Numbered from the stretch's first letter, positions 3,160 through 64,000 are shown. The stretch is DNA of 64,000 nt from an uncultured Actinomycetota bacterium (GCA_963851105.1 CAWKNP010000012.1:9444-73443); one strand, 5' to 3'. Program-made: numbers and translations. The notes: generated by a model from the sequence alone, not told the origin.

Positions 3160-4863
3160 TCACCGAAGTCGTTCAAGGTCCCGGATGCCGTAGAGCTTCC
3201 GAGCAGTAGCCGTGGCCGCTTCGACGTCCCGAGCCGAGAAGGCCGATGCCAGCGCTCGTCGATCGGACAGAGATATCGACTCGGGTACAGGGACACGGAT
3301 ACGCCGTACATACTGGGCCTGGAACCTGTAGCAGCCGCCCCGCATCTTCACGCAGTAGGCCCCGACGAAGAGGTTCGCGACATCGGACAGCAATAGGCCA
3401 CCGAGCACGTCGAGATCCCACTGATCGCTCACGACGAAGTAGAGATTGTGGTGCGGGTAGAACCGGCCATCATCGAGGACCGGGTGGGAGGCGGCCTTGA
3501 TGTCCGGCAGAACGAGCTTTGGCCGGCTCTGCAGTTCGGCATGTACGCGGTCGATGGTGCGGTACCACTGCCCAGGATTCTTCCGGGCCGTGTGCCGGCC
3601 CCGGAGCCGAGTGGCGTCGGTGGTCAGGTAGTCCCGAAGTCGTGGGTACCGGGCGAGGTCGACGAGCCCGGCGTCGTCCCACGGGTTCACCAGGTAGCCA
3701 CCTGACCAGGACGCATGGCCGTCGGTGATGTCGGTGGCCTGCAGAAGTGGAAGGAGGCGGTCACTCTCGACCAACTCTGGGTCCTTCGTGATGTATACGT
3801 CGTCGCACCCGGTCGCCACGCCGATACCCACTCTTGTGCCCGTGCGCGGATCCTCAAGCGGCGGGAACTTCGCCTCCAGTTCGGCGACGAGGGCGAGCTG
3901 GGCTGGACTGCCCGTCGGCCAGAGGTCACGACCGTCGAACCACGAATCAAGCCGTGACGCCTCGACGCTCGGCGTTGACAGCGCCAGGCGCCGCGGGCGG
4001 CGGACCCACCGGGACAACTTGTTGGCGTCCGGCTCACCGAATGCAGCCTTCGCGTCCGCCACGACCGCTCGCCGTTGCGGTCCATTGCGCAACACGACGA
4101 CGGCGGGGTAGGCCGACACGTCGTCCTCGAAGGCGTCCACGTCGTGCATGGTGAGCACCGTGTCGACCGCGAACGAGGCGGCGACTAGCGACCGCAGATC
4201 GGCGCCGTACTGGTTGCGCATCCATCGGTCGGCGCAGATGTAGCCGAGCCTTCCCTCAGAGGCGAGCAGCTCCAAGCCGAGTTCGATGAAGCCGACATAG
4301 ATATCGCTCCTCCCCCGCATCGTCGTGCACCGGCGCCGGTAAGCGTCCATGACCTCAGGGTCGACGTTCTCCAACCGGATGTAGGGCGGGTTACCGACGA
4401 CATAGTGCGCTGAGCCGGACTCATGGTGGGCCAGCAAGAAGTCGTCGGTCGTCACCCAGGCTGACGCGATGTCCACAGCTGAGACGTGGTCGAGCCCGGC
4501 ATCCTCTAGACGCTCGGAAGCGGCCTTCCGGGCCCGCTCGGCGTTGGCGTCGAGCAGGTCGAAGGCCCGGATGGCTCCTTCGAGCGAGCGGAGCCCTCGT
4601 CCGTGTCGGCGGCACGACGCGATCAGACGATCGATCGCCGGGATTAGGAACGCGCCCATCCCGCATGACGGCTCGACCAGTCGCCGGGCTGCGAGATCCT
4701 GGTCCTCGGTGTACCCGACCAGATCGAGGATCAGTTCGACGATCCAGCGACGGGTGAACACCTCGCCGTAGTCCGAGCCCGGATCTCGGGTGAGTTCAGT
4801 GAGCGTCACCGGGCGGACCTCGATAAGTGACAGTTGACGTGGGGAAACCATGGCGACGACCAC
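3160..4863 (-). CDS. N6-adenine DNA methyltransferase, gamma class (Eco57I/TaqI-like)
   Basis: Motif I 'EPSCGMGAFL' precedes motif IV 'VGNPPYIRLE' (NPPY). 567 aa, with a C-terminal region the right size for a target-recognition domain. Confidence 0.85.
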   Translation of the reverse strand: MVVAMVSPRQLSLIEVRPVTLTELTRDPGSDYGEVFTRRWIVELILDLVGYTEDQDLAARRLVEPSCGMGAFLIPAIDRLIASCRRHGRGLRSLEGAIRAFDLLDANAERARKAASERLEDAGLDHVSAVDIASAWVTTDDFLLAHHESGSAHYVVGNPPYIRLENVDPEVMDAYRRRCTTMRGRSDIYVGFIELGLELLASEGRLGYICADRWMRNQYGADLRSLVAASFAVDTVLTMHDVDAFEDDVSAYPAVVVLRNGPQRRAVVADAKAAFGEPDANKLSRWVRRPRRLALSTPSVEASRLDSWFDGRDLWPTGSPAQLALVAELEAKFPPLEDPRTGTRVGIGVATGCDDVYITKDPELVESDRLLPLLQATDITDGHASWSGGYLVNPWDDAGLVDLARYPRLRDYLTTDATRLRGRHTARKNPGQWYRTIDRVHAELQSRPKLVLPDIKAASHPVLDDGRFYPHHNLYFVVSDQWDLDVLGGLLLSDVANLFVGAYCVKMRGGCYRFQAQYVRRIRVPVPESISLSDRRALASAFSARDVEAATATARKLYGIRDLERLR

Positions 4864-6206: not shown

Positions 6207-6517
6207 CCGCTGCGCCTCTTCGACCTCGACCTTCCTCGGCCGGTCAAGTCTCAAATCGAGACACCGAGATGCCCGTCCCAAATCGAGACGCCACCGCCAC
6301 TGTCTGAGATTGAGACGGACGATCCCGAGGTCGAAGACTCGACCAGCCAGCTGCGGATGGTGGCCGAAGTCGCCACAATGGTGGTGAACGCGCACGACCG
6401 ACTCGAGGCTGCGATCAAGGCAGCCCGGAGGGCCGGCTTCAGTTGGCGTGAGATCGGGATCGCTGCAGGCGACCCCCACCAGACCCTTCATCGCCGGCAC
6501 CGGCAAGGAGGAAGAGT

Positions 6518-7660
6518 ATGACTTCACGTCGTCGATTCGGTCGGATCCGAAGGCTGCCATCAGGACGATGGCAGGCCCGCTATCCAGATGGGTCTGGCGA
6601 TGATGTGCCGGCGCCGGAGACGTTCGCCTCGAAGGGGGACGCGGCCCGATGGCTCGTCATGGTCGAGGCCGACATGGCTCGCGGCCAGTACGTCGATCCT
6701 CGGGCGGGGCGGATCACGTTCGGCGAGTGGGCCAAGGAGTGGCTCGGTCGTCCCGGCAAGCGGGCCAACTCGATCGCTCGGGATCGCCAAGGCCTCGACG
6801 CGTTCACGCCGCACCTCGGCTTCCGCCCATTGGCTTCCATCACCCCCATGCACGTCCAGGCTGCCGTCGACGAGCGTGGCCGCCACTGCTCCCCGGCGAC
6901 CCTCGCTCGCGACGTCGCCGCCGTCCGAGCCGTCTTCAACGCCGCGGTAGACGCAGACCTGATCGCACGGTCGCCTGCAAGGAAGGTCGCCCTCCCGAAG
7001 GTTCGGCCTCCGGAGCGGACGCCGCTGACCGCCGAGGAGCTTCTCCGCCTGGCCGACGCAATCGTCGGCCGGTACCGGGCGCTGGTGCTCGTTGGAGGCG
7101 TCCTGGGGCTTCGATGGGGCGAGGCGATCGCGCTCAGGCTCTGCGACGCCGACTTCATGCGCCGGACCGTCAGAGTCGCCCAGACGGTCGAGGAAGTCGC
7201 CGGCCAGGTCCAGGTGGTCCCTGGCCAGGCGAAGACCGCCGGCAGTCTGAGGACGATCACGGCGCCACCGTTCCTAATCGACGAGCTGGCTCGTCATCTC
7301 GCCGCGTACAGGTCGGGCGCCGACCGAGGGGAACTGGTCTTCGTCGGACCGAGAGGAGGCATCCTCCGGCGCCGCTTCGGAGAGCGAACGTTCCGGCCTG
7401 CGGTGCAACGAGCCGGGCTCGACCCGTCGCTCACCTTCCAGGCACTCCGCCATGTCGCCATGACGGCCCTGGTCGATGAGAACGTGCATCCGAGAGTGAT
7501 GCAGGGCCGGGCCGGGCACGCCAGTTCCCGGCTGACGATGGAGCTCTACTCCCGCGTCAGCGACGGTGCCGACCGGGAGGCCGCGATGGCCCTTGAGAAC
7601 CGGTTCCGACCGGCATTGTCCGATGGGAACGGGCACGGAACGGGCACGGAGCCCTCCTGA
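6518..7660 (+). CDS. int: tyrosine-type site-specific integrase (phage integrase family)
   Basis: N-terminal 'RLPSGRWQARY' AP2-like DNA-binding motif. C-terminal 'LRHVAMTAL...GHASSRLTMELYSRV' gives the R...HxxR...Y catalytic pattern. Confidence 0.9.
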   Translation: MTSRRRFGRIRRLPSGRWQARYPDGSGDDVPAPETFASKGDAARWLVMVEADMARGQYVDPRAGRITFGEWAKEWLGRPGKRANSIARDRQGLDAFTPHLGFRPLASITPMHVQAAVDERGRHCSPATLARDVAAVRAVFNAAVDADLIARSPARKVALPKVRPPERTPLTAEELLRLADAIVGRYRALVLVGGVLGLRWGEAIALRLCDADFMRRTVRVAQTVEEVAGQVQVVPGQAKTAGSLRTITAPPFLIDELARHLAAYRSGADRGELVFVGPRGGILRRRFGERTFRPAVQRAGLDPSLTFQALRHVAMTALVDENVHPRVMQGRAGHASSRLTMELYSRVSDGADREAAMALENRFRPALSDGNGHGTGTEPS

Positions 7661-7711
7661 GGGACGTCGTTCGACCGTAAAACAGCAGGTCAGCGGGCAT
7701 GCACGCCTCCA

Positions 7712-7762
7712 AGACAACAGCACTGATAATGCTGAGGTCGATGGTTCGAGTCCATCTAGCCC
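7712..7762 (+). other. tRNA 3' fragment (anticodon arm with GAT anticodon + T-arm + acceptor 3' strand), Ile-like; probable att site remnant
   Basis: CAGCA-CTGATAA-TGCTG anticodon stem-loop. GATGG-TTCGAGT-CCATC T-arm. TAGCCCC acceptor strand followed by discriminator A. No matching 5' acceptor or D-arm upstream. Confidence 0.5.
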
Positions 7763-7848
7763 CACTGCCTGGACCGGTAAAAGCGCTGGTCAGGGCGGGT
7801 GCGGGGCGTAACCGGGAGTTACCGGTAGTCGGTTCGTTGGTCTTGCTT

Positions 7849-19182: not shown

Positions 19183-20124
19183 CTAGGTGCCGGGGACCGT
19201 TGTGCCGGGGACGGTCACGAACGTCGGGGTAGTCGTCGGCGGCGGCGGGTTGGTCGATTTAGTCGTCGTGGGCGGCGGGGCCGCAGTGGTCGCCGGTGTC
19301 GTTGCCGGGGTGCTCGGCGGGGGAGGCGGAGGCGGATTCGTCGGCCGGGTGATGGGCCGAGTCGTCCCTCCGGTGGTCCCACCGGTGTTGCCGGCATTGT
19401 TCGTGGTGCCCGCGGGCGTCTGGGTGACCCCCCCGGCGGCACCCGTGGTCACCGCGGCCGCCACGGTGGTCGCGGTCGGAGTACCGGGAACCGTTGCGGC
19501 TGTCGTGTCGGTGGTTGCCGGTTGGGTCGTCACCACACCGAAGGGGCCGCTCACCACGGTCGTGGCCGTGCTCGGCGTCGACAAGGCGACGCTGGGGCTG
19601 CCCTTGTGGGAGCCCCCGCTGCGGCTGATGAATCCGATGACCCCCAACACCACCACGACACCGACAGCCGCCGCGATCATTCCCCGATGGCTGCGCCCGC
19701 CGCCCTGCGGTCGGGCGAAGTGCCGCGGCGCCGATTCCCCGCCGAAGAGTGCGGCGTCGCCGCCGACCATCGTGGGGGCCGCAGCGGCCGTGCCCGCGTC
19801 GGAGGCGGTCGCTCCCGCGGCGGCCCAGGCTGGAGCCGCCGGCCGGGACAGGAATGGCACCGGCCTGGTCTCGTCGTTGCGTTCCTCGATCGCAGCAGTG
19901 GCGGCCGCGGCGACGGCGGCCGCCAGCTCGGGTGACACGTCGCCACCGTCGCGGCGGCGCACATGCTTCTTCACTTCCGTCACCCGCGGATCACCGCCCG
20001 CGACTGCTCCGGTACCGGTCGCCTCGGGCTCGTCGGGGGCGCCTAGGTCGTAGCGATCCTCGAAATCCCACAGCCAGTCCCCGGTTACGTCGTCGCGGGT
20101 GCTGACAGTGTCCTCTGAATCCAT
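19183..20124 (-). CDS. Thr/Pro-rich single-pass membrane protein (hypothetical)
   Basis: Acidic N-terminal domain 'MDSEDTVSTRDDVTGDWLWDFEDRYD', one transmembrane segment 'MIAAAVGVVVVLGVIGFI', then a long T/P/G-rich tail. Start chosen at M51 of the track ORF. Confidence 0.45.
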   Translation of the reverse strand: MDSEDTVSTRDDVTGDWLWDFEDRYDLGAPDEPEATGTGAVAGGDPRVTEVKKHVRRRDGGDVSPELAAAVAAAATAAIEERNDETRPVPFLSRPAAPAWAAAGATASDAGTAAAAPTMVGGDAALFGGESAPRHFARPQGGGRSHRGMIAAAVGVVVVLGVIGFISRSGGSHKGSPSVALSTPSTATTVVSGPFGVVTTQPATTDTTAATVPGTPTATTVAAAVTTGAAGGVTQTPAGTTNNAGNTGGTTGGTTRPITRPTNPPPPPPPSTPATTPATTAAPPPTTTKSTNPPPPTTTPTFVTVPGTTVPGT

Positions 20125-20192: not shown

Positions 20193-20241
20193 CCAAAGTG
20201 CTGTGAAACGACGTAATACCATCGTTTCCCAGCACTTTGGG
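20193..20241. repeat. 49-bp imperfect palindrome (about 19-bp arms, loop TAATACC), copy 1
   Basis: CCAAAGTGCTGTGAAACGACG-TAATACC-ATCGTTTCCCAGCACTTTGGG. Near-identical copy at 40987-41036. Confidence 0.8.
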
Positions 20242-20343
20242 TCGGCGCCCCGGGCGCAAGCACCACGGCACCACGGCACCACGAGAATTATCGCGCCTAG
20301 AGATCCCCCATTCCTGGGAATCGCGCCCCTAGGGTTGGGCCGA

Positions 20344-21135
20344 GTGGCACCCGTCGAGCACCACGCCGCCAATACCCGGCGTGCGTACCGGTCGGACTTT
20401 GCCCATTTCACCAGGTGGTGCCGGACGGCCGGCATACCGCCGCTGCCGGCGACACCCGAAGCGGTCTACCTCTATTTGATGGACCTGGTGGCCGACAACA
20501 ACTCGGCCGGGTACGCCGTCGCCACCGTCGAGCGCCGGTTGGCCGCCATCACCGCCGTGCATCGGGGCGACGGGAACCCGCCAACCCCGGCCCAGCATCC
20601 GCAGGTTCGTCAGCTGATGGCCGCCATACGGCGAACCTACGGCCGGCCGCCCAACGCCCGCGACCCGCTCACCGGCGACCAGCTGGCCGTCATCATCGAC
20701 CACTTGAACCTGGCGACCTGGTCGGGACTGCGCGACCGGGCCCTGCTGCTGTTCGGCTTCGCCAGCGCGCTGCGACGCACCGAACTGGCCGCCCTCACCA
20801 TTGAGCAACTGGCCCCCCACGACGGCGGCTACCTCGTCACGTCACGGCCGGCGAAGCCGGCAATACATGTTCAGGCGCGACCAGGTTCCCCGCTGTGTCC
20901 CGTCGCCGCGGTCGACGGTTGGCTGGCCGCGGCCGGGATCGCCTCGGGCCCGGTGTTCCGGAAGGTCACCCGCTACCAGACCGTCGTCGCCCCCGCGCTG
21001 GCGCCCGCGGCCGTGGCCCTGATCGTCAAACGAGCTGCGCAGGCGGCCGACCTGCCAGCCGACCGGCTGGCCGCTCATTCGCTGCGCGCCGGGCGAGCCC
21101 CGGTCACCCCGGCGCGGGTGGGCAGCCGGCCATGA
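20344..21135 (+). pseudogene. tyrosine recombinase/integrase, C-terminally truncated (no catalytic Tyr region)
   Basis: N-terminal core-binding domain 'NTRRAYRSDFAHFTRWC'. Catalytic R ('ALRRTELAAL') and 'HSLRAG' (HxxR) are present. The ORF stops 18 aa later without the LGH...Y segment. Start codon uncertain. Confidence 0.6.
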
Positions 21136-22643
21136 CGCCCGACGCTCCCGGGCTCCGGCGCCGGCGGCCCACCGCGACCTCGGCCTACGGCGTCTCCCGC
21201 CGCGAAAGCCACGACGCCTCGGCCTTCTACGCCCGATTCGGCACCCCTGATGTCTCCGCCGACGACCTGGTCAACGCGCCCAAGGCCGTCGACGAGATCT
21301 GGGTCGGCGACGCCCGGGCCATGGACACCTGCGGCGACGTCGCCGACGCCTCGGTCGCGCTCGTCGTCACGTCACCGCCGTATTTCGCGGGCAAGGAGTA
21401 CGAGCAGGCCCTCGGAAACGGACACATCCCTGCCACCTACCAGGAGTACCTGATCGCGCTCGAGGACGTCTTCGCGGAGTGCGTCCGCAAGCTCGAGCCC
21501 GGCGGTCGCATCGCCGTCAACGTGGCCAATCTCGGCCGCAAGCCCTACCGCTCCCTCTCGGGCGATGTCACCACCATCCTCCAGGATCGCCTCGGCCTGC
21601 TGCTCCGCGGCGAGATCGTCTGGTGGAAGGCCCACGCGGCCGGCGGGTCCTGCGCCTGGGGCACCTACCAACGGCCGGGCAACCCGGTGCTGCGCGATCT
21701 GACCGAGCGGGTGGTGGTGGCGTCGAAGGGACGTTTCGACCGGGCGATCAGTGCGGCCGACCGGGCCCGCCAGGCACTGCCGTGCGCCGGCTCGATTTCC
21801 ATGGACGAGTTTGTCGACGCCACCACCGATATGTGGGACATCCCGGCCGAGTCGGCCACCCGCGTCGGCCACCCCGCGCCCTTTCCCGTCGAGCTTCCCC
21901 GCCGCCTGATCGAGCTCTACACCTATCGCGGCGATCTGGTGCTCGACCCGTTCATGGGATCAGGGTCGACCGCGGTCGCCGCCGTCCGCACCGGGCGGGC
22001 CTACGTGGGCTTCGACACCGACGCCGGGTACGTCGCCCGGGCGAGGGCCCGCGTCGCCGCCGAAAGAGCCGAAGAACAAGGCGGGCGGACCGCGCCGGGC
22101 GCTCGCCACATCGTGGTGCCCGCGGTGCAGAAGCGGGCGGGAAAAGGGGCGGGACAGTCCGCCGATCCTGACCGCATAACCACCGCCTTCCGCCAGGGCC
22201 GAAAGGCACGTGAGGTGGCCCGGCTCGTGCTCGAGGTCGCCGGCTTCGCGGGCATCGAGGAGAACGTAAGCCTTCGCGATCTCGGGCTGGAACTGGCGTT
22301 TCGCGCCCGCGACGGCAACGGCGAACGGTGGCTGTTTGACCTGGCCGGCGCCTTTTCGGTCACCCGCCCCGGGCTGCGGCGGGCCGACAACATCTGGCGC
22401 GTTCTCGGGAAGGCGGCGGTCCTGCAGGCCGCGGCGGGGCGCCCCGCCGGCGCGCCGCGTCGCCTTGGCCCGCTGGTGGTGCTCACGACCGACGCTCCGA
22501 TCGCAAGTACCCCGGCCGGCCGGGCCCTGGCCGTCGCGGTGGACAGATCTGCGGGCCCGATCCACGACGTCATCGAGCTCACCGATCCCGTCGCACTGGC
22601 CCGGCTAAGCAGTTACGCGGCATCGGCTCCCCCGGCGCCGTGA
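21132..22643 (+). CDS. beta-class DNA methyltransferase (N6_N4 Mtase family; SPPY then FxGxG) with ~200-aa C-terminal extension, orphan
   Basis: 'VVTSPPYFAGKEY' motif IV precedes 'LDPFMGSGST' motif I. ATG overlaps the stop of the truncated integrase (CCATGA). No cognate nuclease adjacent. Confidence 0.85.
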   Translation: MTPDAPGLRRRRPTATSAYGVSRRESHDASAFYARFGTPDVSADDLVNAPKAVDEIWVGDARAMDTCGDVADASVALVVTSPPYFAGKEYEQALGNGHIPATYQEYLIALEDVFAECVRKLEPGGRIAVNVANLGRKPYRSLSGDVTTILQDRLGLLLRGEIVWWKAHAAGGSCAWGTYQRPGNPVLRDLTERVVVASKGRFDRAISAADRARQALPCAGSISMDEFVDATTDMWDIPAESATRVGHPAPFPVELPRRLIELYTYRGDLVLDPFMGSGSTAVAAVRTGRAYVGFDTDAGYVARARARVAAERAEEQGGRTAPGARHIVVPAVQKRAGKGAGQSADPDRITTAFRQGRKAREVARLVLEVAGFAGIEENVSLRDLGLELAFRARDGNGERWLFDLAGAFSVTRPGLRRADNIWRVLGKAAVLQAAAGRPAGAPRRLGPLVVLTTDAPIASTPAGRALAVAVDRSAGPIHDVIELTDPVALARLSSYAASAPPAP

Positions 22644-39400: not shown

Positions 39401-40240
39401 ATGGCCGTGGGAGACCAGAGCCAACCGGCGCCCGGGTGGTACCCCGATCCCGCCGGTCAGGTCGCGGTCCGCTGGTGGGACGGTCGCTCCTGGACCCCGG
39501 CCGTGGCCCCGTACCCACCGCCGGGTAGCGATCCGACGCCCGGCGCTGAGCGGCGCCTGTTTCCCGCTCACGCCGGGTGGCTCGGCGTAGCGGGCGTCCT
39601 CTTCGGACTGTTCGCCGGCGGGATCCTGCAGATTGTGGCCTCGGTCATCGTTCCCGGGAGCACAGCGGCGCAGATCCTGGTCGGCGAGCTGGGCCTATGG
39701 CTCGGGTTGGGGGCAACCTGCGTGGTGGCCAGCCACCGCTACGGGACGGCCTCGCTGAGCCGGGATTTCCAATGGCGGGTCCGGGTAGTCGATCTGGCCT
39801 ACGGGCCCCTCGCGGCGGTGGCCTGCGTGGTAGTGGCCGGGTTGATCGGGGGCGCCTTCCAGGGCACCCGCTTCTCGGGAAGCAACACCGACATCATCAC
39901 CAGCCAGCGGGGGAACACCGTCGGCGTCGCTGTTGTTACCGTAATTGCCGCCGTCGGAGCGCCGGTGTTCGAAGAGCTGTTCTTCCGGGGCTTTCTACGT
40001 ACCAGTCTGGCCAGTCGTCTCGGCTCGGGAGCTATATGGGCGCAGGCCATACTCTTCGGATTCGCCCACTACCAGTTCGGCCTCGGGCTCGGGAACGTAT
40101 CGGTTGTCACCGCGACCGCCGGCATCGGGGTGGTGCTCGGCTACACCGCCCATCTGACCCGCCGACTGGGCGCGGGGACCATTGCCCACGGATTGTTCAA
40201 CCTCTTTGTGACCCTTAGCATCATTGGAGTAATTCGATGA
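39401..40240 (+). CDS. CPBP-family (CAAX/Abi) intramembrane metalloprotease with N-terminal DUF2510-like segment
   Basis: 'PGWYPDPAGQVAVRWWDGRSW', then 'EELFFRGFL', 'FGFAHY', 'HGLFN' motifs. Confidence 0.8.
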   Translation: MAVGDQSQPAPGWYPDPAGQVAVRWWDGRSWTPAVAPYPPPGSDPTPGAERRLFPAHAGWLGVAGVLFGLFAGGILQIVASVIVPGSTAAQILVGELGLWLGLGATCVVASHRYGTASLSRDFQWRVRVVDLAYGPLAAVACVVVAGLIGGAFQGTRFSGSNTDIITSQRGNTVGVAVVTVIAAVGAPVFEELFFRGFLRTSLASRLGSGAIWAQAILFGFAHYQFGLGLGNVSVVTATAGIGVVLGYTAHLTRRLGAGTIAHGLFNLFVTLSIIGVIR

Positions 40241-40971
40241 CCACCTCTACCCCGACCTCCTCGACCCGACCCCAGCCTCCGGAGTCGCATCACCGTGACA
40301 TCCAGGGAGGCGCGGCGCGCGCCGCCGTCCTTGGCGTGAGCGACGGCCTGGTCACCAACGTCTCGCTCATCTTGGGCATCGCAGGCGCCAACACCGCCCC
40401 AGGAACGGTTCGCCTCGCCGGCCTGGCGGGGATGTTGGCCGGCGCCTTCTCCATGGCGGCCGGCGAGTATGTGTCGATGAAGGCCCAGACCGAGCTGCTC
40501 GAACGGGAGCTCGAGATGGAACGACTCGAGTTGCACCGTTCCCCCGAGGCCGAGCAGGCGGAGCTGGCCCAGCTCTACGAATCCCGGGGCGTCGATCCCG
40601 ACACCGCGGGCGAGCTGGCGTCGGAAATGATGCGCACGCCCGAGCTCGCGCTCGAGACCCACGCCCGAGAGGAGCTGGGCGTCGACCCTACTTCCCTCGG
40701 AAACCCCTACCAGGCCGCAATCGCGTCGGCGGCCAGCTTCGGCGTGGGCGCGATCGTGCCGCTCATGCCTTGGTTCTTCATCAATGGCACCGGGGCCGTG
40801 TTCATCTCCGTGGTACTGGGGGCGGTGGCCGCAGTCATGATCGGCTCCGCCCTGGCCCGCTACACCGGACGTTCGTGGGTGCGCAGCGCGGCGCGGCAGC
40901 TCTTCGTCACCGTCGCAGCCGCCGGCGTCACCTACGGTCTCGGCGCGTTAGTGGGGACCAGCATCAGCTAG
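40237..40971 (+). CDS. VIT1/CCC1-family iron/manganese transporter
   Basis: 'GAARAAVLGVSDGLVTNVSLILGIAGA' N-terminal signature and five transmembrane segments. ATGA overlap with the upstream stop. Confidence 0.85.
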   Translation: MTTSTPTSSTRPQPPESHHRDIQGGAARAAVLGVSDGLVTNVSLILGIAGANTAPGTVRLAGLAGMLAGAFSMAAGEYVSMKAQTELLERELEMERLELHRSPEAEQAELAQLYESRGVDPDTAGELASEMMRTPELALETHAREELGVDPTSLGNPYQAAIASAASFGVGAIVPLMPWFFINGTGAVFISVVLGAVAAVMIGSALARYTGRSWVRSAARQLFVTVAAAGVTYGLGALVGTSIS

Positions 40972-40986: not shown

Positions 40987-41036
40987 CCCAATGTGCTGTG
41001 AAACGACGTAATACCGTCGTTTCGCAGCACTTTGGC
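40987..41036. repeat. 49-bp imperfect palindrome, copy 2 (between convergent VIT and MscS genes)
   Basis: CCAATGTGCTGTGAAACGACG-TAATACC-GTCGTTTCGCAGCACTTTGGC. Loop identical to copy 1. Confidence 0.8.
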
Positions 41037-41039
41037 TCG

Positions 41040-42194
41040 CTAGGCCCTCCCGGGAGGCCGCTCCCCCGGAGGAGGCGTGGCCGCCGGCGGCGCCTCCCCG
41101 GACCCCGCAGCCGCAGCTTCCGAGGCCTCCCCGGGCCCCCCCGGCGCAGCCGCGGCCTCCCCGGGCGCAGCAGCCGCCGCCGCCGCAGCCGCCGCCGCTG
41201 CTTCCACGGGCGCCCCAGCCGCACCCGCAGCCGCAGTGTCCTCGGGGTCGCCGGCGCCGGCGCCGCCCGCACTGGGGACCCACGCCACTTCCTCGCGCCG
41301 GAGGCGCTCGATGATGCGCCCCCGCAAGGCCCGGGCAATGGCGGCGTTGTTGCCCACCGCCGACTTGGCCACGATGCGGATGGTGACGCCGTCGGCCGCG
41401 ACACCCTGGACCCCGAGCACCGCCGGCGGCTCGAGGATCTTGCCCTCCCATTCCGGGTCTCGGGCAAACGCCGCCCCCTCCTCCGCCGCCAGTGCCTGGA
41501 CCCGGTCGAGGTCGGTGCCCGGGGGGACGACGACGTCGACGATCGCCTGGCTGAAGCCCTCGGAGCTGTTGCCGACCTTGCGGATCTCGCCGTTGGCGAT
41601 GTACCAGACGGTCCCGTCGACCGCCCGCACCCGGGTGGTGCGCAGGTTGAGCCCCTCCACGGTGCCATTGACGTCGTTGGTCGTGATGGTGTCGCCCACG
41701 CCGTACTGGTCCTCGATCACGATGAGGAGGCCCGAGAGGAAGTCCTTGACCAGCGACTGGGCACCGAAGCCGACAGCCGCGCCGATGACCGTGGCGGTGG
41801 CCACGAAGGGCCCCAGGTTGATCCCGATGACCCCGAGGATCGTGAGGAAGGCGATCACCCAGACGATCGTGCGGAAGACGTCGCCGAGCACCGTTGCGAC
41901 GGTGCTCGCCCGCTCGGTGGCCCGCACCGACGTCAGGCGAGCCGGCGCCCGCAGTTGCAGCGCCCGGATCAGCCGTCGTACCGCTCGCGGCACCAATCGG
42001 GTGACGAGCCAGGCGCTGAACACCACCACGACGATGCGGAACGGCCCCACCGACAGCGCCTGGACGGTGTGGGCGGTGGTGTCGGACACACCGTGGTCGT
42101 GCAGGAACTGATAGATCGATCCGCCTGACGATGGGGCGGCGAGCAGCATCAGCGGATGGTACCGGGTCCAATTCCTGAGTGGTTGGGTCGACAT
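41040..42194 (-). CDS. MscS-family mechanosensitive channel with Ala-rich C-terminal tail
   Basis: Transmembrane region plus 'GFGAQSLVKDFLSGLLIVIEDQYGVGDTI' MscS pore/beta-domain signature. Start chosen at 'MSTQPL'; the track ORF extends to 42233. Confidence 0.85.
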   Translation of the reverse strand: MSTQPLRNWTRYHPLMLLAAPSSGGSIYQFLHDHGVSDTTAHTVQALSVGPFRIVVVVFSAWLVTRLVPRAVRRLIRALQLRAPARLTSVRATERASTVATVLGDVFRTIVWVIAFLTILGVIGINLGPFVATATVIGAAVGFGAQSLVKDFLSGLLIVIEDQYGVGDTITTNDVNGTVEGLNLRTTRVRAVDGTVWYIANGEIRKVGNSSEGFSQAIVDVVVPPGTDLDRVQALAAEEGAAFARDPEWEGKILEPPAVLGVQGVAADGVTIRIVAKSAVGNNAAIARALRGRIIERLRREEVAWVPSAGGAGAGDPEDTAAAGAAGAPVEAAAAAAAAAAAAPGEAAAAPGGPGEASEAAAAGSGEAPPAATPPPGERPPGRA

Positions 42195-42264
42195 TTCACG
42201 GCGTCGCCTATAGGCTGGAAACCAAACAAGCAATCAGACGACCCTCTTGAGGAGGAATCACCGA

Positions 42265-56684: not shown

Positions 56685-59600
56685 ATGAAGCGCAGCAAGC
56701 GTCCCGAGGACTCGGGCGTGCCGTCGTCGACCGAAGAGGTCGACTCCATTTTCCGTTTCAGTGAGCGTCATTTGGGTATACGGCACCATCGTCACAATGA
56801 AGGACGTTTTGCCGTCGGGGGCACAAGGGGGATGGTGAAGATGGGCAACCGGTTGCGAGGGGGCACCCAATCGAGTCCAGGAGACCGCCGGCTGCTTCGG
56901 GGCCACGGCCTGAGGTCTTTGCGCGGGCCCGGTTCGGGCGCGGACTCCCCGTCCCGACCCGGGCGCCGCGTCGTCCAGGGCCTGGTGGCCCTGGCGATCG
57001 GTGTCGCCCCCTTTGCCATTGGTATCCCCGCCGCCTTGGCGGGCGTCGGCTTCGGCGTCACCCCGAACTTCCCGTCGAATGTCACCGTCGGCGACAGCGG
57101 AACGCCGGCATCCCTGCAGATCCAAAACACCGCCAATGGCGCGCAGTTCCACCTCACGGCGACGCTCTCCACCATCAACTTGGTCCCGGCGTGCGGTTCG
57201 ACCGGGTTCACCCCCACCGGCGACTGCCCCGCGGCCGACGCGCAACCCGGGGTCTTCCAGTTGAGTCCGACCGGTAGTGGTGAGGCCGGGACTGCCTGCG
57301 CAGGAAAGACCTTCACGATCACTGTCATCGATCCCGCCACCGGGCAGGTGACGTTCACCCCCGTGGGGGGCCCCGTGATCCTCGGTCCCGCCGACGGTCT
57401 CGGACCGCTTTCCCCGGTCTGTCGCATCGATTTCACGTTCAGCGTCCTTAGGGAACCAACCATCGACGCCGACCCGGCACCCGGTATCCAGACGGCGGAG
57501 CTGGGTTTCGCCCAAGGCACCACGAGCGACGGCGTTCCCGGTTCGGGCCTCGGCTCCAACCTCACCACCGTTGCCAAGGCCCAGCCGGCTCTGACGACGA
57601 CCGCGACCACGACCGGCAGGGTGGGCGCCCCGATCACTGACACCGCCCACCTCGTGGCGGCGGCGCCTCCCGCGCCCGCCCCCACCGGGACCATCACCTT
57701 CACCCTGTTCACTACCGCCAACTGCACCGGCCCGGGCGTGTTCACCTCCACAGTGACCGTGACCTCCGGCGGTGGCAATTACACCTCGGGACCGTTCACA
57801 CCGACCGCGCCCGGCACATACAAATGGATCGCGGCCTACAGCGGCGACGCCAACAACGCTGCCCTCACCACCGCCTGCGGTGACCCCGGCGAGACCAGCA
57901 CGATCTCCCGACGGACCCCCGCCATCGTCACCACTGCCTCGGCGCCAACCACAATTGGCGGCCCGATCTCGGACAGCGCAGTGCTTTCCGGCGGGTTCAA
58001 CCCCACCGGCTCGATCGTCTTCAACGTGTTCGGCCCGAACGACGCCACCTGTACGAGGGCGGTGGCTTTCACCTCCACGGTGCCGGTCGCCGGCAATGGC
58101 ATCTACAACTCGGGGCCGTTCATCCCGACCGCACCCGGCTCCTATAACTTCGTCGCCAGCTACAGCGGTGACGCCAACAACGCGCCGGTGACCAGCGCCT
58201 GCGGCGCCGCCAACGAGAACACCACCGTCAACAAGGCGACTCCCGCCATCGTCACCACCGCTTCGGGCGCCGGCCCCGTCGGGGGGACCATCGCCGACAG
58301 CGCGGTCCTGTCCGGCGGTGTTGCCCCCACGGGGACCATCGTCTTCAAGGTCTTTGGCCCCAACGACGCCACCTGCACCGGAGCGGTGGCGTTCACGTCG
58401 ACGGCGACAGTGAACGGCAACGGCACCTATCCCTCGGCCAACTTCACGACCACCGCCGCCGGCACGTACCGGTTCGTGGCCTCCTACAGCGGCGACGCCA
58501 ACAACGCCGCGGTCACGACGTTGTGCAGCGACCCGGCCGAGGCGGTCGTCGTCACCAGGGCCACCCCTGCCATCGTGACGACGGCTTCGCCGACGGTGCC
58601 CGCCGGCGGCGCCATAAGTGACACCGCCACCCTTTCCGGCGGCGTGGCTCCAACGGGAACGATCACCTTCACCCTCTTCGGCCCCGCCAACATCAACTGC
58701 ACCGGCGCCGCCATCTTCACCTCGGTCGTTGCGGTCGCCGGCAATGGCGTCTACCCCTCGGGACCGTTCACGGTGACCACGCCGGGGACGTACAACTGGG
58801 TGGCGGCCTACAGCGGCGACGCCAACAACGCCGCCGCCGTGAGCCCCTGCGGCGCCCCCAATGAATCGGTGATCGTCACCAAGGCCAACCCGGCCATCGT
58901 CACGCAAGCCTCCTCGTCGGTCCCCGCCGGCGGCCCGATCACCGACACCGCCACCCTGTCGGGCGGCGCCGCCCCCACCGGGTCGATCACCTTCACGGTG
59001 TTCGGCCCGAACAATGCCACCTGCACCGGGGCCGCTGTGTTCACCTCCACCGTGCCCGTCGCGGGCAACGGCAACTACACCTCAGCACCGTTCACCACTC
59101 CCGCCGCCGGGGTCTACCGCTTCGTCGCCGCCTATAGCGGCGATGCCAACAACACCGCGGTCACGACGGGCTGCAACGACGCCAACGAGAGCGTCATCGT
59201 CACCAAGGCGCCGCCCGCCATCGTGACCCACGCCTCGGCGCCCGTGGCGGCCGGCGGCACGATCCGCGACGTCGCCACCCTCTCCGGTGGCGTCAACCCA
59301 ACCGGCACCATCAGATTCACGGTCTTCGGCCCCAATGACGCCACCTGCTCCAGGGCGGCGATCTTCACCTCGATCCGGCCGGTCAGTTCCGGCAATGGCA
59401 ACTACTCCTCGGCACCGTTCACCGTCACGGTGGCCGGGACCTACCGCTTCATCGCGGCGTACAGCGGTGACGCCAACAACGTCGCCGTCGCCACGACGTG
59501 CAACGACGCCAACGAGAGCGTCGTCGTCAGCCCGGCGACGCCGGCCATCGTGACCAACGCCTCGGCGACGGTCCCCGCCGGCGGGCCGATCAGTGACTCC

Positions 59601-62600
59601 GCCACCCTCTCCGGCGGCGTCAACCCCACCGGGACGATCACCTTCACCGTCTTCGGTCCCAATGACGCCACCTGCACCGCGGCCCCCGCGTTCACTTCGA
59701 TCGTGGCGGTTACCTCGGGCAATGGCACCTACCCGTCGGGGCCGTTCGTGACCACGGCCGCCGGGACCTATCGCTTCATAGCGGCATACAGCGGTGACGC
59801 CAACAACGTCGCCGTCACCACGTTGTGTAACGACCCCAATGAGAGCGTTGTCGTTGGCCCCGCCAACCCGACCCTGGTCACGGCGGCCTCGGCGTCGGTT
59901 CCCGTCGGCGGCACGGTCAACGACACCGCGACGCTGTCGGGTGGCGTCAACCCGACGGGCACCATCACCTTCGAGTTGTTCGGCCCGACCCCGGGATGCA
60001 CCGGCGCTGCGATCTTCACCACCACCAAGCCCGTTTCCGGCAACGGCAACTACACGTCGGCTTCGTTCACCGTCACCGCGCCGGGTACCTACAACTTCGT
60101 GGCCTCGTACAGCGGCGACGCCAACAACGCGGCCATCCCGTTCACCGCCTGCGGCGCCGCGGGCGAGAACGTGACCATCACCAAGGCGGCCCCGGCCATC
60201 GTGACCACCGCGAGCGCCCCGACGCCTGCCGGCGGCCCCATCAGTGACACCGCCACCCTTTCCCTCGGTGTCGCCCCCACCGGCACGATCACGTTCTCCA
60301 TCTACGGCCCGAACAACGTCGGGTGTACCGGTGCCGCCATCTTCACCTCCACCAAGGCAGTCAACGGCAACGGCAACTACACCTCGGACCCGTTCACCAC
60401 GTCGGTGGCCGGGACCTACCGCTTCATCGCCGCCTACAGCGGTGACGCCAACAACAGCGCCGTGACCTCCGGCTGCAACGACGCCAACGAGAGCGTGCTG
60501 GTGACGCCCGCGGCGCCCGCGATCATCACCCACGCCTCGGCGACGGTCAGCGCCGGTGGCGCCATCGCCGACACCGCTACCCTCTCGGGCGGCGTCAACC
60601 CGACCGGGACCATCACCTTCACCCTGTTCGGCCCCAACGACGCGACCTGCGCCCGCGCCGCCGTCTTCACCTCGGTCAAGGCGGTCAGCGGCAACGGCGA
60701 CTACACCTCCGCCAGCTTCGTTGCGAATGCCGTAGGGACCTACCGCTGGGTGGCCGTCTACAGCGGCGACGCGAACAACGCCGGCGTCACCAGCGCCTGC
60801 AACGCGGCCAACGAGAGCGTCGTCGTCACCAAGGCGCCACCGGCCATCGTGACCGTCGCCTCGGCGTCGACGCCGGTGGGTGGATCCATAACCGACACCG
60901 CCACGCTGTCGGGCGCCGTCAACCCGACCGGGACGATCACCTTCAACGTGTTCGGCCCCAATGACGCCACGTGCGCCAACGCGCCGGCGTTCACCTCCAC
61001 CAAGGCGGTCAGCGCCAACGGCAACTACACCTCCGATCCCTTCATCGTGACCGTGGCCGGCACCTACCGCTTCACGGCCGCGTACAGCGGCGACGGCAAC
61101 AACTTGGCGGTTACTACGGCGTGCAACGACGCCAACGAGAGCGTCGTGGTCGGCCCGACGACGCCCACCATCGTGACCGTCGCCTCGGGCCCGGTGCTCG
61201 CCGGCGGCGCCATCAGCGACACCGCCAGCCTGACCGGCGGCGTAGACCCCACCGGAACGATCACCTTCACCGTGTTCGGCCCCGACAACGCCACCTGCAG
61301 CGGTCCCGCCGTCTTCACCTCGATCAAGACGGTCACCGGCAATGGCAACTACACCTCGGACCCGTTCACAGCAACGGCCGCCGGCACCTACCGTTTCATC
61401 GCCACCTACAGCGGTGACGCCAACAACATCGCCGTCCACAGCGGCTGCAACGACGCCAACGAGAGCGTGGTCGTCCGCCCCCGGTCCCCGATAATCGTGA
61501 CCCAGGCGTCGGCTCCGGTGACCCTCGGGGGCACCATCAGCGACACCGCCAGCCTGACCGGCGGCATCGCCCCGACCGGCACCATCGTCTTTACCGTCTT
61601 CGGCCCGAACAACGGCACCTGCACCGGAGCCGCAGCGTTCACGGCGACCGTTACGGTGACCGGCAACGGCAACTACTCCTCGGGCCCCTTCACCCCGACG
61701 GCCCCTGGTACCTACCGCTTCGTCGCCACCTACAGCGGTGACGCCAACAACTCCCCCGCCGGGCCGACCGCGTGCGGCGATCCCGCCGAGTCGGTTGTCG
61801 TATCCACCGCCAACCCGACCATCGTCACCCATGCCTCGCCATCGGTCCCGGTAGGCGGAACGATCACCGACACCGCCACCCTTGCCGGCGGCAACGCCCC
61901 CACTGGCACCATCACCTTCCAGGTGTTCGGGCCGGACAACACCACCTGCACCGGTATCCCGGCGTTCACTTCAACCAAGACGGTCGCCGGCAACGGCAAC
62001 TACACCTCGGATCCGTTCATGGTGCCGGCCGCCGGCGCCTACCGCTTCGTGGCGACCTACAGCGGCGACGCCAACAACAGTCCCGCTGGACCCACATCCT
62101 GCTCCGATGCCAACGAGGTGTCGTCGGGCAACAAGGTCAGCCCGGCCATCGCCACGATCGCCTCGGCCGGGGTCTCGGTCGGTGCTGCCATCAAGGACAC
62201 TGCCATCCTGACCGGCGGCTTCAACCCCACGGGCACCATCACCTTCAATCTGTTCGGCCCCAACAACACAACCTGCACCGGGGCGGCCGCCTTCACCGGC
62301 TCGGTCCCTGTGCACGGCAGCGGCAACTACGACTCACCGCCGTTCACCCCGACGGCACCGGGCAATTACACCTTCGTGGCCACCTATAGCGGCGACACCA
62401 ACAACAACGCCGCGGGACCGACCACGTGCAACGACCCCAACGAGACGGTGGTGGTCAGCTTCGTCGCCGCCAGCATCTCCACCACCGCGTCGCCCGCCGC
62501 CGACGTCGGCCAGCCCGTCTTCGACACCGCGACCCTTGGTAGTTCGGGCCACCCGACCGGGACCATCACCTTCACCCTGTTCGGACCCAACGACGCCACC

Positions 62601-64000
62601 TGCACGGGTACGCCGGCGTTCACCTCCACCAAGACCGTCAACGGCGCCGGCACCTACACGTCGGACTCCTTCCTGCCGACGGCCCCCGGCACGTACTCGT
62701 TCGTGGCGACCTACAGCGGCGATGCCAACAATGCCGCCGCAGGACCCACGCCCTGCAACGACCCCGCCGAGCAGGTCACAGTGCTGCCCCGCCCGCAGAT
62801 CGCGGTAACCAAGTCCCCCAGTCCGACGACGCTGCCCGAGCCCGGAGGCAACTTCACCTTCACCGTCACCGTGCACAACCCGAGCTCAGTCGACCCGGTC
62901 AAGATCACGTCGCTGATCGACAACATCTACGGCGACCTCGCCACCCTGCCCGGTTCGACCTGCGGGACCCTTATCGGCGTCACGCTGGCCCCAGGGGCGA
63001 CCTCGCCGCCGTGCAGCTTCACCGGGCCCTTCCACGGCAGGGGTGGCGACAGCCAGACCGACACCGTGACGGTCACCGGCATCGACACCCAGGGGATCAC
63101 CGTCACGGCGTCCGCGCAGGCCACGGTGACGCTCACCGCCGTCCTTCCGGTGATCCACGTGACCAAGGCGGCCAGCCCGCTCACCAAGGTGGAGCCGGGT
63201 GGCATCTTCACCTTCACCGTCCAGGTGTCCAACCCGAGCACCATCGACCCGATCACGATCACCTCGCTGACCGACAACATCTACGGTGATCTCTCCACTC
63301 GGGCCGGCTCGACCTGCGGCGCCCTCATCGGCACCACCCTGGCGCCCGGTGCGAGTTCGCCACCGTGCAGCTTCACCGGGCCGTTCAACGGCAAGGGCGG
63401 CGACAGCCAGACCGACACCGTCACGGTGACGGGCATCGACAGCAACGGGCATACCGCGACCGATACCGCCCAGGCCACGGTGACCCTGACCAGCCTGACC
63501 CCGGTCATCGCGGTGACCAAGGCAGCCGACCCGCTGACCCGACCCGAGCCGGGCGGGACCTTCACCTTCACGGTGCAGGTATCCAACCCCTCGGCCACCG
63601 ATCCCATCAAGATCACGTCGCTGACGGACAACATCTACGGCGACCTGGCGACGCGGCCCGGTTCGACCTGCGGCGCCCTGATCGGCGTCGTCCTAGCCCC
63701 AGGAGCGGTATCGGCGCCGTGCTCGTTCACCGGTCCCTTCACCGGCCATGGGGGCGACAGCCAGACCGACACGGTCACCGTCCACGGCGTCGACTCCTTC
63801 GGGAACACCGCCTCGGCGACCGCCCAGGCCACCGTGACGCTGACCACGGTCAACCCGGAGATCAAGGTCACCAAGGCCGCCAACCCCCTCAGCCTCCCCG
63901 TCCCCGGCGGCAACTTCACCTTCACCGTGCAGGTGTCCAATCCCTCGACGGTCGATCCGGTCAAGATCACGTCGCTGGTCGACAACATCTACGGTGATCT
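56685..64000 (+). CDS. giant secreted/surface adhesin-like protein (3' partial): ~16 tandem 108-aa Ig-like repeats followed by four or more DUF11-like ~119-aa repeats
   Basis: Continuous plus-strand frame with no stop from 56646 to the window end (codons at 57081=GTC, 57781 'YTSGPFTPTAPGTYKWIAAYSGDANNA'). Repeat markers 'PAIVT' recur every ~324 bp from 57921 to 62470. 'VTK...PGG.FTFTV.VSNPS' recurs every ~357 bp from 62800. Alternative starts at 56832 or 56841. Hydrophobic segment at aa ~100. Confidence 0.85.
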   Translation, partial: MKRSKRPEDSGVPSSTEEVDSIFRFSERHLGIRHHRHNEGRFAVGGTRGMVKMGNRLRGGTQSSPGDRRLLRGHGLRSLRGPGSGADSPSRPGRRVVQGLVALAIGVAPFAIGIPAALAGVGFGVTPNFPSNVTVGDSGTPASLQIQNTANGAQFHLTATLSTINLVPACGSTGFTPTGDCPAADAQPGVFQLSPTGSGEAGTACAGKTFTITVIDPATGQVTFTPVGGPVILGPADGLGPLSPVCRIDFTFSVLREPTIDADPAPGIQTAELGFAQGTTSDGVPGSGLGSNLTTVAKAQPALTTTATTTGRVGAPITDTAHLVAAAPPAPAPTGTITFTLFTTANCTGPGVFTSTVTVTSGGGNYTSGPFTPTAPGTYKWIAAYSGDANNAALTTACGDPGETSTISRRTPAIVTTASAPTTIGGPISDSAVLSGGFNPTGSIVFNVFGPNDATCTRAVAFTSTVPVAGNGIYNSGPFIPTAPGSYNFVASYSGDANNAPVTSACGAANENTTVNKATPAIVTTASGAGPVGGTIADSAVLSGGVAPTGTIVFKVFGPNDATCTGAVAFTSTATVNGNGTYPSANFTTTAAGTYRFVASYSGDANNAAVTTLCSDPAEAVVVTRATPAIVTTASPTVPAGGAISDTATLSGGVAPTGTITFTLFGPANINCTGAAIFTSVVAVAGNGVYPSGPFTVTTPGTYNWVAAYSGDANNAAAVSPCGAPNESVIVTKANPAIVTQASSSVPAGGPITDTATLSGGAAPTGSITFTVFGPNNATCTGAAVFTSTVPVAGNGNYTSAPFTTPAAGVYRFVAAYSGDANNTAVTTGCNDANESVIVTKAPPAIVTHASAPVAAGGTIRDVATLSGGVNPTGTIRFTVFGPNDATCSRAAIFTSIRPVSSGNGNYSSAPFTVTVAGTYRFIAAYSGDANNVAVATTCNDANESVVVSPATPAIVTNASATVPAGGPISDSATLSGGVNPTGTITFTVFGPNDATCTAAPAFTSIVAVTSGNGTYPSGPFVTTAAGTYRFIAAYSGDANNVAVTTLCNDPNESVVVGPANPTLVTAASASVPVGGTVNDTATLSGGVNPTGTITFELFGPTPGCTGAAIFTTTKPVSGNGNYTSASFTVTAPGTYNFVASYSGDANNAAIPFTACGAAGENVTITKAAPAIVTTASAPTPAGGPISDTATLSLGVAPTGTITFSIYGPNNVGCTGAAIFTSTKAVNGNGNYTSDPFTTSVAGTYRFIAAYSGDANNSAVTSGCNDANESVLVTPAAPAIITHASATVSAGGAIADTATLSGGVNPTGTITFTLFGPNDATCARAAVFTSVKAVSGNGDYTSASFVANAVGTYRWVAVYSGDANNAGVTSACNAANESVVVTKAPPAIVTVASASTPVGGSITDTATLSGAVNPTGTITFNVFGPNDATCANAPAFTSTKAVSANGNYTSDPFIVTVAGTYRFTAAYSGDGNNLAVTTACNDANESVVVGPTTPTIVTVASGPVLAGGAISDTASLTGGVDPTGTITFTVFGPDNATCSGPAVFTSIKTVTGNGNYTSDPFTATAAGTYRFIATYSGDANNIAVHSGCNDANESVVVRPRSPIIVTQASAPVTLGGTISDTASLTGGIAPTGTIVFTVFGPNNGTCTGAAAFTATVTVTGNGNYSSGPFTPTAPGTYRFVATYSGDANNSPAGPTACGDPAESVVVSTANPTIVTHASPSVPVGGTITDTATLAGGNAPTGTITFQVFGPDNTTCTGIPAFTSTKTVAGNGNYTSDPFMVPAAGAYRFVATYSGDANNSPAGPTSCSDANEVSSGNKVSPAIATIASAGVSVGAAIKDTAILTGGFNPTGTITFNLFGPNNTTCTGAAAFTGSVPVHGSGNYDSPPFTPTAPGNYTFVATYSGDTNNNAAGPTTCNDPNETVVVSFVAASISTTASPAADVGQPVFDTATLGSSGHPTGTITFTLFGPNDATCTGTPAFTSTKTVNGAGTYTSDSFLPTAPGTYSFVATYSGDANNAAAGPTPCNDPAEQVTVLPRPQIAVTKSPSPTTLPEPGGNFTFTVTVHNPSSVDPVKITSLIDNIYGDLATLPGSTCGTLIGVTLAPGATSPPCSFTGPFHGRGGDSQTDTVTVTGIDTQGITVTASAQATVTLTAVLPVIHVTKAASPLTKVEPGGIFTFTVQVSNPSTIDPITITSLTDNIYGDLSTRAGSTCGALIGTTLAPGASSPPCSFTGPFNGKGGDSQTDTVTVTGIDSNGHTATDTAQATVTLTSLTPVIAVTKAADPLTRPEPGGTFTFTVQVSNPSATDPIKITSLTDNIYGDLATRPGSTCGALIGVVLAPGAVSAPCSFTGPFTGHGGDSQTDTVTVHGVDSFGNTASATAQATVTLTTVNPEIKVTKAANPLSLPVPGGNFTFTVQVSNPSTVDPVKITSLVDNIYGD

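Follow-up and report, generated by a model that had tools for sequence, protein, structure and literature searches.

A lineage-restricted family of 48-bp palindromes in uncultured Acidimicrobiales resembles REP-like or bidirectional-terminator elements

The window analyzed here, a stretch of 64,000 nucleotides from an uncultured member of the Acidimicrobiales (99% identical to ENA ERZ25039475 contig_16484), contains two near-perfect palindromes of 48 nt that have the same orientation, lie 20,795 bp apart, and are identical at 45 of 48 positions (Table 1). Copy 2 occupies the 68-bp gap between the convergent genes for a VIT1/CCC1-family transporter and an MscS-type channel, beginning 16 nt past the VIT1 stop codon and ending 4 nt from the MscS stop codon on the opposite strand. 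Copy 1 sits between divergent genes, one encoding a 313-aa protein, whose ATG is 68 nt away, and the other a tyrosine-recombinase-like protein. The interval between the copies holds genes for a PBP, a two-component system, tRNA-Ala, and Band-7, MBOAT, GDSL lipase, MFS transporter, and CPBP protease proteins, and no compositional break was found within it.

Table 1. Features of the window (positions counted from its first nucleotide)
Feature	Position	Strand	Remarks
Eco57I-type restriction-modification methylase	3160-4863	-	
Second integrase	6452-7660	+	PF00589
Weak tRNA-like match	7695-7764		29.7 bits; not called by ARAGORN; adjoins second integrase
Gene for 313-aa membrane-anchored Thr/Pro-rich protein	19183-20124	-	No Pfam family
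Palindrome copy 1	20193-20240	+	CCAAAGTGCTGTGAAACGACGTAATACCATCGTTTCCCAGCACTTTGG; left arm 20193-20211, loop region 20212-20221 (CGTAATACCA), right arm 20222-20240
Short tandem repeat	20255-20282		GCACCACG x3, between copy 1 and the TAGGCGCGATAAT motif
TAGGCGCGATAAT motif	about 20284-20296	-	Kept in all four lineages
Degenerate tyrosine-recombinase-like gene	20340-21135 (start approximate)	+	SAM-like N-domain, weak catalytic-domain match
N4/N6 DNA methylase gene	about 21132-22643	+	Start overlapped by recombinase-like gene
Recombinase-like plus methylase gene pair	20340-22643	+	Also at L010:7423-9725 and L011:2154-4453
VIT1/CCC1-family iron/manganese transporter gene	40237-40971	+	PF01988; 3' end faces copy 2
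Palindrome copy 2	40988-41035	+	CCAATGTGCTGTGAAACGACGTAATACCGTCGTTTCGCAGCACTTTGG; left arm 40988-41008, loop 41009-41014 (TAATAC), right arm 41015-41035
MscS-type mechanosensitive channel gene	41040-42233	-	PF00924; GC3 0.87; convergent with VIT1
Tandem repeats	57774-63994	+	Fourteen 324-bp repeats (71% matches), then 354-bp repeats to window end

Two other regions of the window are recorded here as observations in their own right. The segment from the Eco57I-type methylase to the tRNA-like match is probably another integrated element, inserted at a tRNA remnant. The tandem repeats near the window end encode, on the plus strand, Ig-like units containing AAYSGD and are part of a very large repetitive surface protein gene; a GC3 heuristic wrongly favors the minus strand there.

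An earlier note on this DNA had described two palindromic copies at these sites, and both are real, their positions differing by at most one base from those given there. The arms of copy 1 (19 nt) are 95% complementary and those of copy 2 (21 nt) are 90% complementary, and the two are the cleanest hairpins among the 83 short-range inverted repeats of the window. A 23-mer common to both copies, GTGCTGTGAAACGACGTAATACC, occurs exactly twice in the window when up to 3 mismatches are allowed and in none of 100 shuffles. When 66-nt segments were folded as RNA, both strands of both copies gave energies between -29 and -40 kcal/mol and z-scores between -4.9 and -8.0, and none of 200 shuffles was equally stable in any of the four cases, so that chance, as that note had also held, does not account for the copies. 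The elements are ∼49% GC in a window and genome of 68% GC. The loop had been described as the 7-nt TAATACC; the loop proper has 6 nt, TAATAC, and the final C is the first base of the 3' arm. Across the family described below, the layout is 21-bp arms around a 6-nt TAATAC loop with an A3...T3 base. In copy 1, where the family-consensus loop reads on the plus strand, a C.A mismatch at the closing pair produces a larger loop.

Alignment of 350 bp around each copy showed that the likeness is confined to the palindrome and a trailing TCG, the flanks being unalignable. Because the likeness ends at the palindrome borders, the copies are not duplicated flanking sequence, the origin that the earlier note had named as counting against its reading. 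That only these two copies exist, which that note had coupled with such an origin, does not hold either, since further members occur in another genome and at another locus. The two sites are thus members of a small, lineage-restricted family of ∼48-bp palindromes in uncultured Acidimicrobiales.

The VIT1 neighborhoods of relatives (loci L001-L006 and L012-L021) were compared in order of falling VIT1 identity to the window. The family hairpin is present at the VIT1/MscS junction in L001 (VIT1 100% identical), where it is a perfect 21+6+21 palindrome, in L005 (98%), and in L002-L004 (94%). In L012 and L013 (85%) it is strongly diverged, with the loop AAATAC, and still well paired; the L012 copy is identical to copy 2 of L005 at only 29 of 48 positions (60%) with pairing retained. 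Three lineages carry no hairpin at this junction: in L006 (87%) the two genes are 10 bp apart, in L016-L019 (83%) they overlap by 8 nt, and in L020 and L021 (81%) an M23 peptidase gene lies between VIT1 and MscS. A different, AT-rich perfect palindrome stands there in L014 (84%; L014:5124-5169) and L015 (80%; L015:10746-10789), consisting of A5, stem, AGGA loop, stem, and T5 at 33-39% GC. These two palindromes are mutually homologous, differ by compensatory changes in the stem, and by their sequence have the appearance of a canonical bidirectional intrinsic terminator. In the outer arms, CCAAAAAGTG/CACTTTTTGG, they resemble CCAAAGTG/CACTTTGG of the family, and the family covariance models match L015 weakly (22-25 bits). 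The presence of an unlike palindrome at the same place in L014 and L015 argues that the VIT1/MscS junction is a site selected for a hairpin, and the three lineages without one indicate that the hairpin is dispensable there. The junction therefore repeatedly holds a long palindrome yet can do without one. In L001, the MscS gene call (L001:10728-11783, 351 aa) spans the hairpin and overlaps VIT1 by 8 nt, for which an indel in the Ala/Pro-rich C-terminal tail is the likely cause; the palindrome would then fall inside coding sequence.

The copy-1 site has a different history. Copy 1 is identical in L008, from the same species, and in L009, which is 100% identical to the window over its 3.8 kb, and it also occurs in L010, a locus that shares its sample with the 98% lineage and in which the stretch from hairpin to ATG of the 313-aa gene is kept as well. 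It is absent in L011, which comes from the same sample as a copy-2 contig of the 94% lineage and retains the recombinase-like and methylase genes. Since copy 1 is missing from L011 while these genes are kept, copy 1 is younger than copy 2 and independent of them. The flanks in L010 are collinear with those in the window, and with respect to these flanks the asymmetric loop reads in the opposite direction, being GTAATGCT in L010 and GGTATTAC in the window on the 313-aa sense strand. Compared with the consensus GTAATACC, the L010 loop agrees at 6 of 8 positions on the 313-aa sense strand and at 3 of 8 on the strand that carries the consensus in copy 1 of the window. Judged from these sequences, the state of the L010 loop is that of a loop inversion or else of a re-insertion in opposite orientation.

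The genes beside copy 1 were also compared. The recombinase-like open reading frame stops soon after an HSLRAG motif, so that the C-terminal region for the catalytic tyrosine is apparently missing. It encodes about 263 aa in the window and 263 or 264 aa in L010 and L011, and it overlaps by 4 nt the gene for the methylase (∼500 aa), which has a long C-terminal extension. Conservation of this pair in three lineages speaks for a working module of two genes rather than an integrase in decay. No link between copy 1 and the recombinase-like gene, called a truncated integrase in the earlier note, can be demonstrated; the gene is present without a hairpin in L011. It is also unrelated to the integrase near the family copies of L007 (see below), and we rejected a conserved integrase association on this ground.

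Other observations at this locus concern the surrounding DNA. The TAGGCGCGATAAT motif to the right of copy 1 could be a -10 element, and TAGACT, which precedes the ATG of the 313-aa gene by 7 nt, would be consistent with a leaderless mRNA. In L008, a strain 99.4% identical to the window, an extra 7.46 kb (L008:1275-8738) joins at about window position 21380, >1 kb from copy 1. This insert encodes an intact 473-aa integrase, a second N4/N6 methylase, and about eight proteins without a Pfam family, and is a strain-variable island beside the methylase.

Members of the family at unrelated positions were found in one further species. A search with a pattern of the right arm and loop gave a single match among 185,579 species-representative genomes, Acidimicrobiales bacterium SMAG_U5494. 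Its locus (L007) holds two tandem copies, A and B, that have the same orientation and start 93 bp apart. Copy A begins 59 nt past the stop codon of a gene for a DUF2510-type membrane protein; an rnpB gene and an unrelated integrase lie upstream. Copies A and B are identical to copy 2 of L005 at 41 and 39 of 48 positions, respectively (81-85%), and copy A shares with it a 30-nt inner block exactly. The VIT1 region of SMAG_U5494 (L020) has no hairpin at its junction. Its proteins are 70-88% identical to those of the window, a range shared by L006, L012, L014, L015, and L016, and SMAG_U5494 is a genus-level relative of the window lineage. Non-orthologous copies in different species (81-85%) are therefore more alike than the orthologous copies of L005 and L012 (60%). 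This discordance points either to movement or overwriting by a "master" sequence or to a sequence-specific constraint that L012 escaped, and it is the sole feature of the family that goes beyond an ordinary terminator.

Other searches bear on copy number and distribution. Two covariance models (R1 and R2) found no further copies in ∼250 kb comprising the window and all fetched loci, much of which is orthologous to the window region. With two copies in the 64-kb window and two in the 3.4 kb of L007, copy density is clearly below that of classical REPs. Neither scans of IMG/VR nor a BLAST search of plasmid and phage collections with the 48-mer returned anything relevant. At the Rfam 15 gathering score only tRNAs in the window reach threshold, and at E ≤ 10 only generic miRNA-precursor hairpin models appear, far below their thresholds. 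A pattern of the inner stem and loop, GAAACGANGTAATACCNTCGTTTC, had no matches in GTDB representative genomes or JGI metagenome contigs; the left arm of most relatives has AAAGTGACG, which makes this pattern too strict. The right arm and loop pattern likewise gave no matches in the metagenome contigs, although the JGI-derived loci L002, L004, and L005 fit it, which indicates that the contig collection does not include these samples and that its negatives are weak. A concatenated query of the translated hairpin (QSAVKRRNTVVSQHFG and variants) had no matches in the protein database.

Pairing of the stem was assessed in an alignment of 10 sequences related by descent (window copies 1 and 2, L001, L005, L002, L007 A and B, L010, L012, and L013). 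Standard pairs fill 88% of the cells, and 8 of the 21 stem pairs have changed on both sides, so that the changes across genomes are compensatory, a point on which the earlier note had proposed a check. The covariation score was 0.303 compared with 0.177 in shuffles (0 of 500 as high), and pairing fell to 32-52% when the 3' partner was slid by 1-3 columns. Columns 22/39 follow a path through A-U, G.U, and G-C, and columns 26/35 through C-G, U.G, and U-A; columns 12/49 alternate between G-C and C-G, and columns 16-18 show a block change in L012. Template switching in DNA palindromes can yield symmetric changes without RNA selection, which makes this covariation weaker evidence than that for an ordinary RNA. 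Given template switching and the shared descent of the sequences, the covariation supports maintained pairing and not specifically selection for an RNA structure.

The loop is less constant than the stem pairing. Across the family it reads TAATAC, T-ATAC, GAATAC, TAATGC, or AAATAC, and at the copy-1 site of L010 it is inverted, so the argument from loop conservation to a specific function, made in the earlier note, fails. The identical loop of copies 1 and 2 reflects recent common descent or palindrome correction.

Changes in the arms point to turnover at the DNA level. The left inner arm is AAAAGTGACG in L005 and L002 and CAAAGTGACG in L007, and in all three xAAAGTGACG stands opposite CGTCGTTTCx, giving two G.T wobbles and one or two mismatches. 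In the window, L001, and L010 it is TGAAACGACG, which exactly matches the reverse complement of CGTCGTTTCA, the right arm of L001 and L010; the window copies have G and C at the last base of that arm. The change from AAAAGTGACG to TGAAACGACG thus amounts to four clustered substitutions, with a perfect palindrome in L001 and L010. On the sequence comparison, the likeliest source of these substitutions is either template switching that corrected a quasipalindrome or conversion of one copy by another. Correction of quasipalindromes when replication switches template is a described mechanism (PMC7202029), and the "perfecting" of an arm is alike in both cases; here it is read from sequence comparison, in which gene conversion would look the same. 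Correction or conversion of the arms would explain both the likeness of copies 1 and 2 and the low functional weight of their shared loop. Arm perfecting and loop inversion would then be DNA-level dynamics by which the palindromes also change.

Taken together, the family looks like a REP-like or bidirectional-terminator element and not a new kind of system. Our preferred reading, in which we have moderate confidence, is that the palindrome is a REP-like element of low copy number and works as a 3'-end or bidirectional-terminator hairpin. We infer that the element is transcribed, that it has a termination or stabilization activity, and that some route exists for its copying. A transcript of either strand would fold into a very stable stem-loop. 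At copy 2, a two-way 3'-end hairpin of this kind would serve as a weak intrinsic terminator, as a block to 3' exonucleases after termination farther downstream, or as both, which is the action thought to belong to REP elements and to U-tract-poor actinobacterial hairpins. Selection for pairing would keep the hairpin at the VIT1/MscS junction, and the same sequence would have been copied to other intergenic sites, giving copy 1 and the tandem pair behind an unrelated gene in another species. Of the options that the earlier note listed, a bidirectional terminator or REP-like element agrees with the position of copy 2 and with its A3-stem-loop-T3 layout; the terminator option does not extend to copy 1, which is not in a terminator position. 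Between divergent genes there is no upstream transcript to terminate, and copy 1, being young and without an evident terminator role, may be neutral. A protein-binding site or a small RNA, also on that list, is a possible but improbable function.

Comparison with bidirectional intrinsic terminators shows likeness and difference. An A-run, stem-loop, and T-run lie within 20 nt of both stop codons at copy 2, and L007 A and B, behind a gene, also fit stop-codon proximity, whereas copy 1 does not. Terminators evolve by compensatory change (PMC5381666), as do the stems of the family, and the sister lineages L014 and L015 carry the canonical A5/T5 version at the same junction. On the other side, intrinsic terminators have a U-rich tract of ∼7-9 nt with a matching A-tract, but the T-run of the family has only 3 nt, which belong to the palindrome. 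For this genome the stem is unusual in its length and its AT-richness, and the family sequence recurs at other loci, including the non-terminator position of copy 1. A consensus terminator scan found no sites at either copy locus, and the U-tract does not extend past UUUGG, the AAA/TTT being followed directly by GG. Mycobacterial RNA polymerase has been reported to need a U-tract in vitro (PMC3993855), which together with the short U-tract makes true intrinsic termination doubtful.

The nearest actinobacterial counterpart is TRIT, the "Tuberculosis Rho-independent terminator," a hairpin reported to be restricted to Mycobacterium, with 147 copies per genome, and to be centered about -8 from the stop codon, inside coding sequence (PMC3152330). 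Both are actinobacterial, sequence-conserved, largely bidirectional gene-end hairpins without a classical U-tract. The present family, in contrast, is low-copy, lies outside coding sequence (+17), and occurs in Acidimicrobiales. By host, copy number, and position it is not TRIT, a distinction drawn against the description of TRIT and not its consensus sequence.

REP and BIME elements of Enterobacteria and Pseudomonas and the REPIN-RAYT systems (PMC3116915, PMC3337134) provide the other comparison. REPs of Escherichia coli are reported to be dual terminator/stabilizer elements of 3'UTRs and, when between convergent genes, to be associated with raised expression (bioRxiv 10.64898/2026.03.23.713779). 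Like REPs, the family members are short extragenic palindromes, all of them intergenic except for the L001 gene call through the hairpin, that occupy several non-orthologous intergenic sites in related species with presence/absence differences between close relatives, lie between convergent genes and in tandem clusters, and give stable transcript hairpins on either strand. In the partial genomes covered they are fewer in number, as REPs occur tens to hundreds of times per genome and the family has two copies in 64 kb and no extras in ∼250 kb. The 21-bp, nearly perfect arms also contrast with the short, imperfect stems of REPs, and the family lacks a GTAG-type 5' motif. REPINs are inverted doublets, whereas the sole doublet of the family (L007 A and B) is direct, and gene annotation and scans of the window and loci show no counterpart of the single-copy RAYT flanked by REPs. 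We know of no REP family from this high-GC actinobacterial class.

The strongest competitor to a gene-end hairpin, possible but on balance unlikely, is a selfish REP-, PATE-, or MITE-like mobile hairpin that is copied by a trans-acting single-strand enzyme, such as a RAYT or an IS200/IS605-type HUH transposase, able to recognize the particular sequence of the hairpin, any terminator effect being incidental. The identity of 81-85% between non-orthologous loci, in genomes only ∼70-88% identical in protein and against 60% for the orthologous L012 copy, is what mobility would produce, as are the varying presence at orthologous sites, the tandem pair in L007, and an element AT-richer than its genome; the opposite loop orientation in L010 is compatible with independent insertion. 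Against it, the annotated and scanned genes include no such transposase, no target-site duplication is visible, and neither the ∼250 kb nor the IMG/VR, phage, and plasmid collections contain extra copies. The L007 pair is direct where REPINs are inverted, and the persistence of a covarying hairpin over a long time at the VIT1 junction suggests selection at the level of the host.

A related proposal, to which we give slightly less credence still, is an undescribed REP-like system of the Acidimicrobiia with the hairpin as its recognition unit, in which a dedicated trans-acting factor, a RAYT/HUH-type enzyme or a hairpin-binding protein, would hold the hairpin sequence constant over genus-level divergence and copy it into, or overwrite, terminator positions. 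If true, it would explain why the non-orthologous copies are more alike than the orthologous ones.

It is improbable that the element is instead a structured RNA, either a 3' or 5' UTR hairpin recognized in trans, through which one RNA-binding protein co-regulates VIT1 and the 313-aa and DUF2510 proteins, or a short stable RNA. Covariation of the stem and the wide retention of the loop core AATAC are in line with this idea, and so are the G.U wobbles, which favor the sense strand in L012 and L013 (-24.4 versus -17.3 kcal/mol on the VIT1-sense and opposite strands) and in copy 1 (-31.8 versus -26.2 on the sense strand of the 313-aa gene and its complement). Most copies fold equally on both strands, and only L012, L013, and copy 1 fit a strand-specific RNA function, so that we make no claim for either strand. 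Moreover, the Rfam hits are generic miRNA-hairpin noise, the L010 loop is inverted relative to the flanking gene, conservation of the loop is no higher than overall identity predicts, and the neighboring genes have no evident common function.

Slightly less probable again is a site at which a protein binds double-stranded DNA, whether an operator or a lox/FRT-like core on which the neighboring tyrosine-recombinase-like protein would act. The layout does resemble that of a recombinase core, in that the arms are inverted about an asymmetric spacer (6-8 bp in lox/FRT) and the two copies have the same spacer; in addition, copy 1 is ∼100 bp upstream of the recombinase-like gene, and the sequence is conserved across species. 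This reading has to contend with L011, which keeps the recombinase-like and methylase genes without the hairpin, and with copy 2 and the L007 copies, which have no adjoining gene of that type, the L007 integrase being unrelated and next to rnpB. The recombinase-like open reading frame apparently lacks the catalytic-tyrosine region, the arms vary by compensatory pairs with their bases not conserved, the arms, at 21 bp, are longer than is usual in operators, copy 2 is flanked by the 3' ends of genes, and recombination of the direct copies would excise housekeeping genes (PBP and tRNA-Ala).

That the copies are attL/attR-type direct repeats bounding a 20.8-kb island brought by the neighboring integrase can be dismissed as highly improbable, despite the direct repeats and the integrase-like gene ∼100 bp inside one of them, given that the interval consists of core genes (PBP, two-component system, tRNA-Ala, Band-7, MBOAT, MFS, VIT1) with no compositional break, that gene order across copy 2 is kept in the hairpin-less L006 and L016-L019, that the 94% lineage has copy 2 while L011 from the same sample as one of its contigs lacks copy 1, and that the strain-variable segment of L008 joins away from copy 1.

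Several known site types were also considered and rejected. For integron attC/attI sites, there is no hairpin behind the gene to the left of copy 1 and no cassette array. The parS site is a 16-bp palindrome, TGTTTCACGTGAAACA, with half-sites abutting head to head; in the element GTGAAAC and GTTTCAC are everted and 20 nt apart, and the left GTGAAAC is not kept across the family. A parS search of the window that allowed up to 3 mismatches gave no site. A CRP-like TGTGA...TCACA site would have a spacing of 6 nt, the element has 20 nt, and its left half-site is not conserved.

If the preferred reading of a low-copy REP-like gene-end hairpin is true, the family is a small case of a palindromic element serving as a two-way gene-end hairpin in a poorly studied, uncultured actinobacterial class. 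It would also present hairpin turnover in the form of gain, loss, replacement by unrelated palindromes, template-switch "perfecting," and flipping. Such elements are useful for annotating transcript ends in high-GC genomes without classical U-tract terminators, and the discordance between orthologous and non-orthologous copies hints at a factor that copies or binds the hairpin in a sequence-specific manner.
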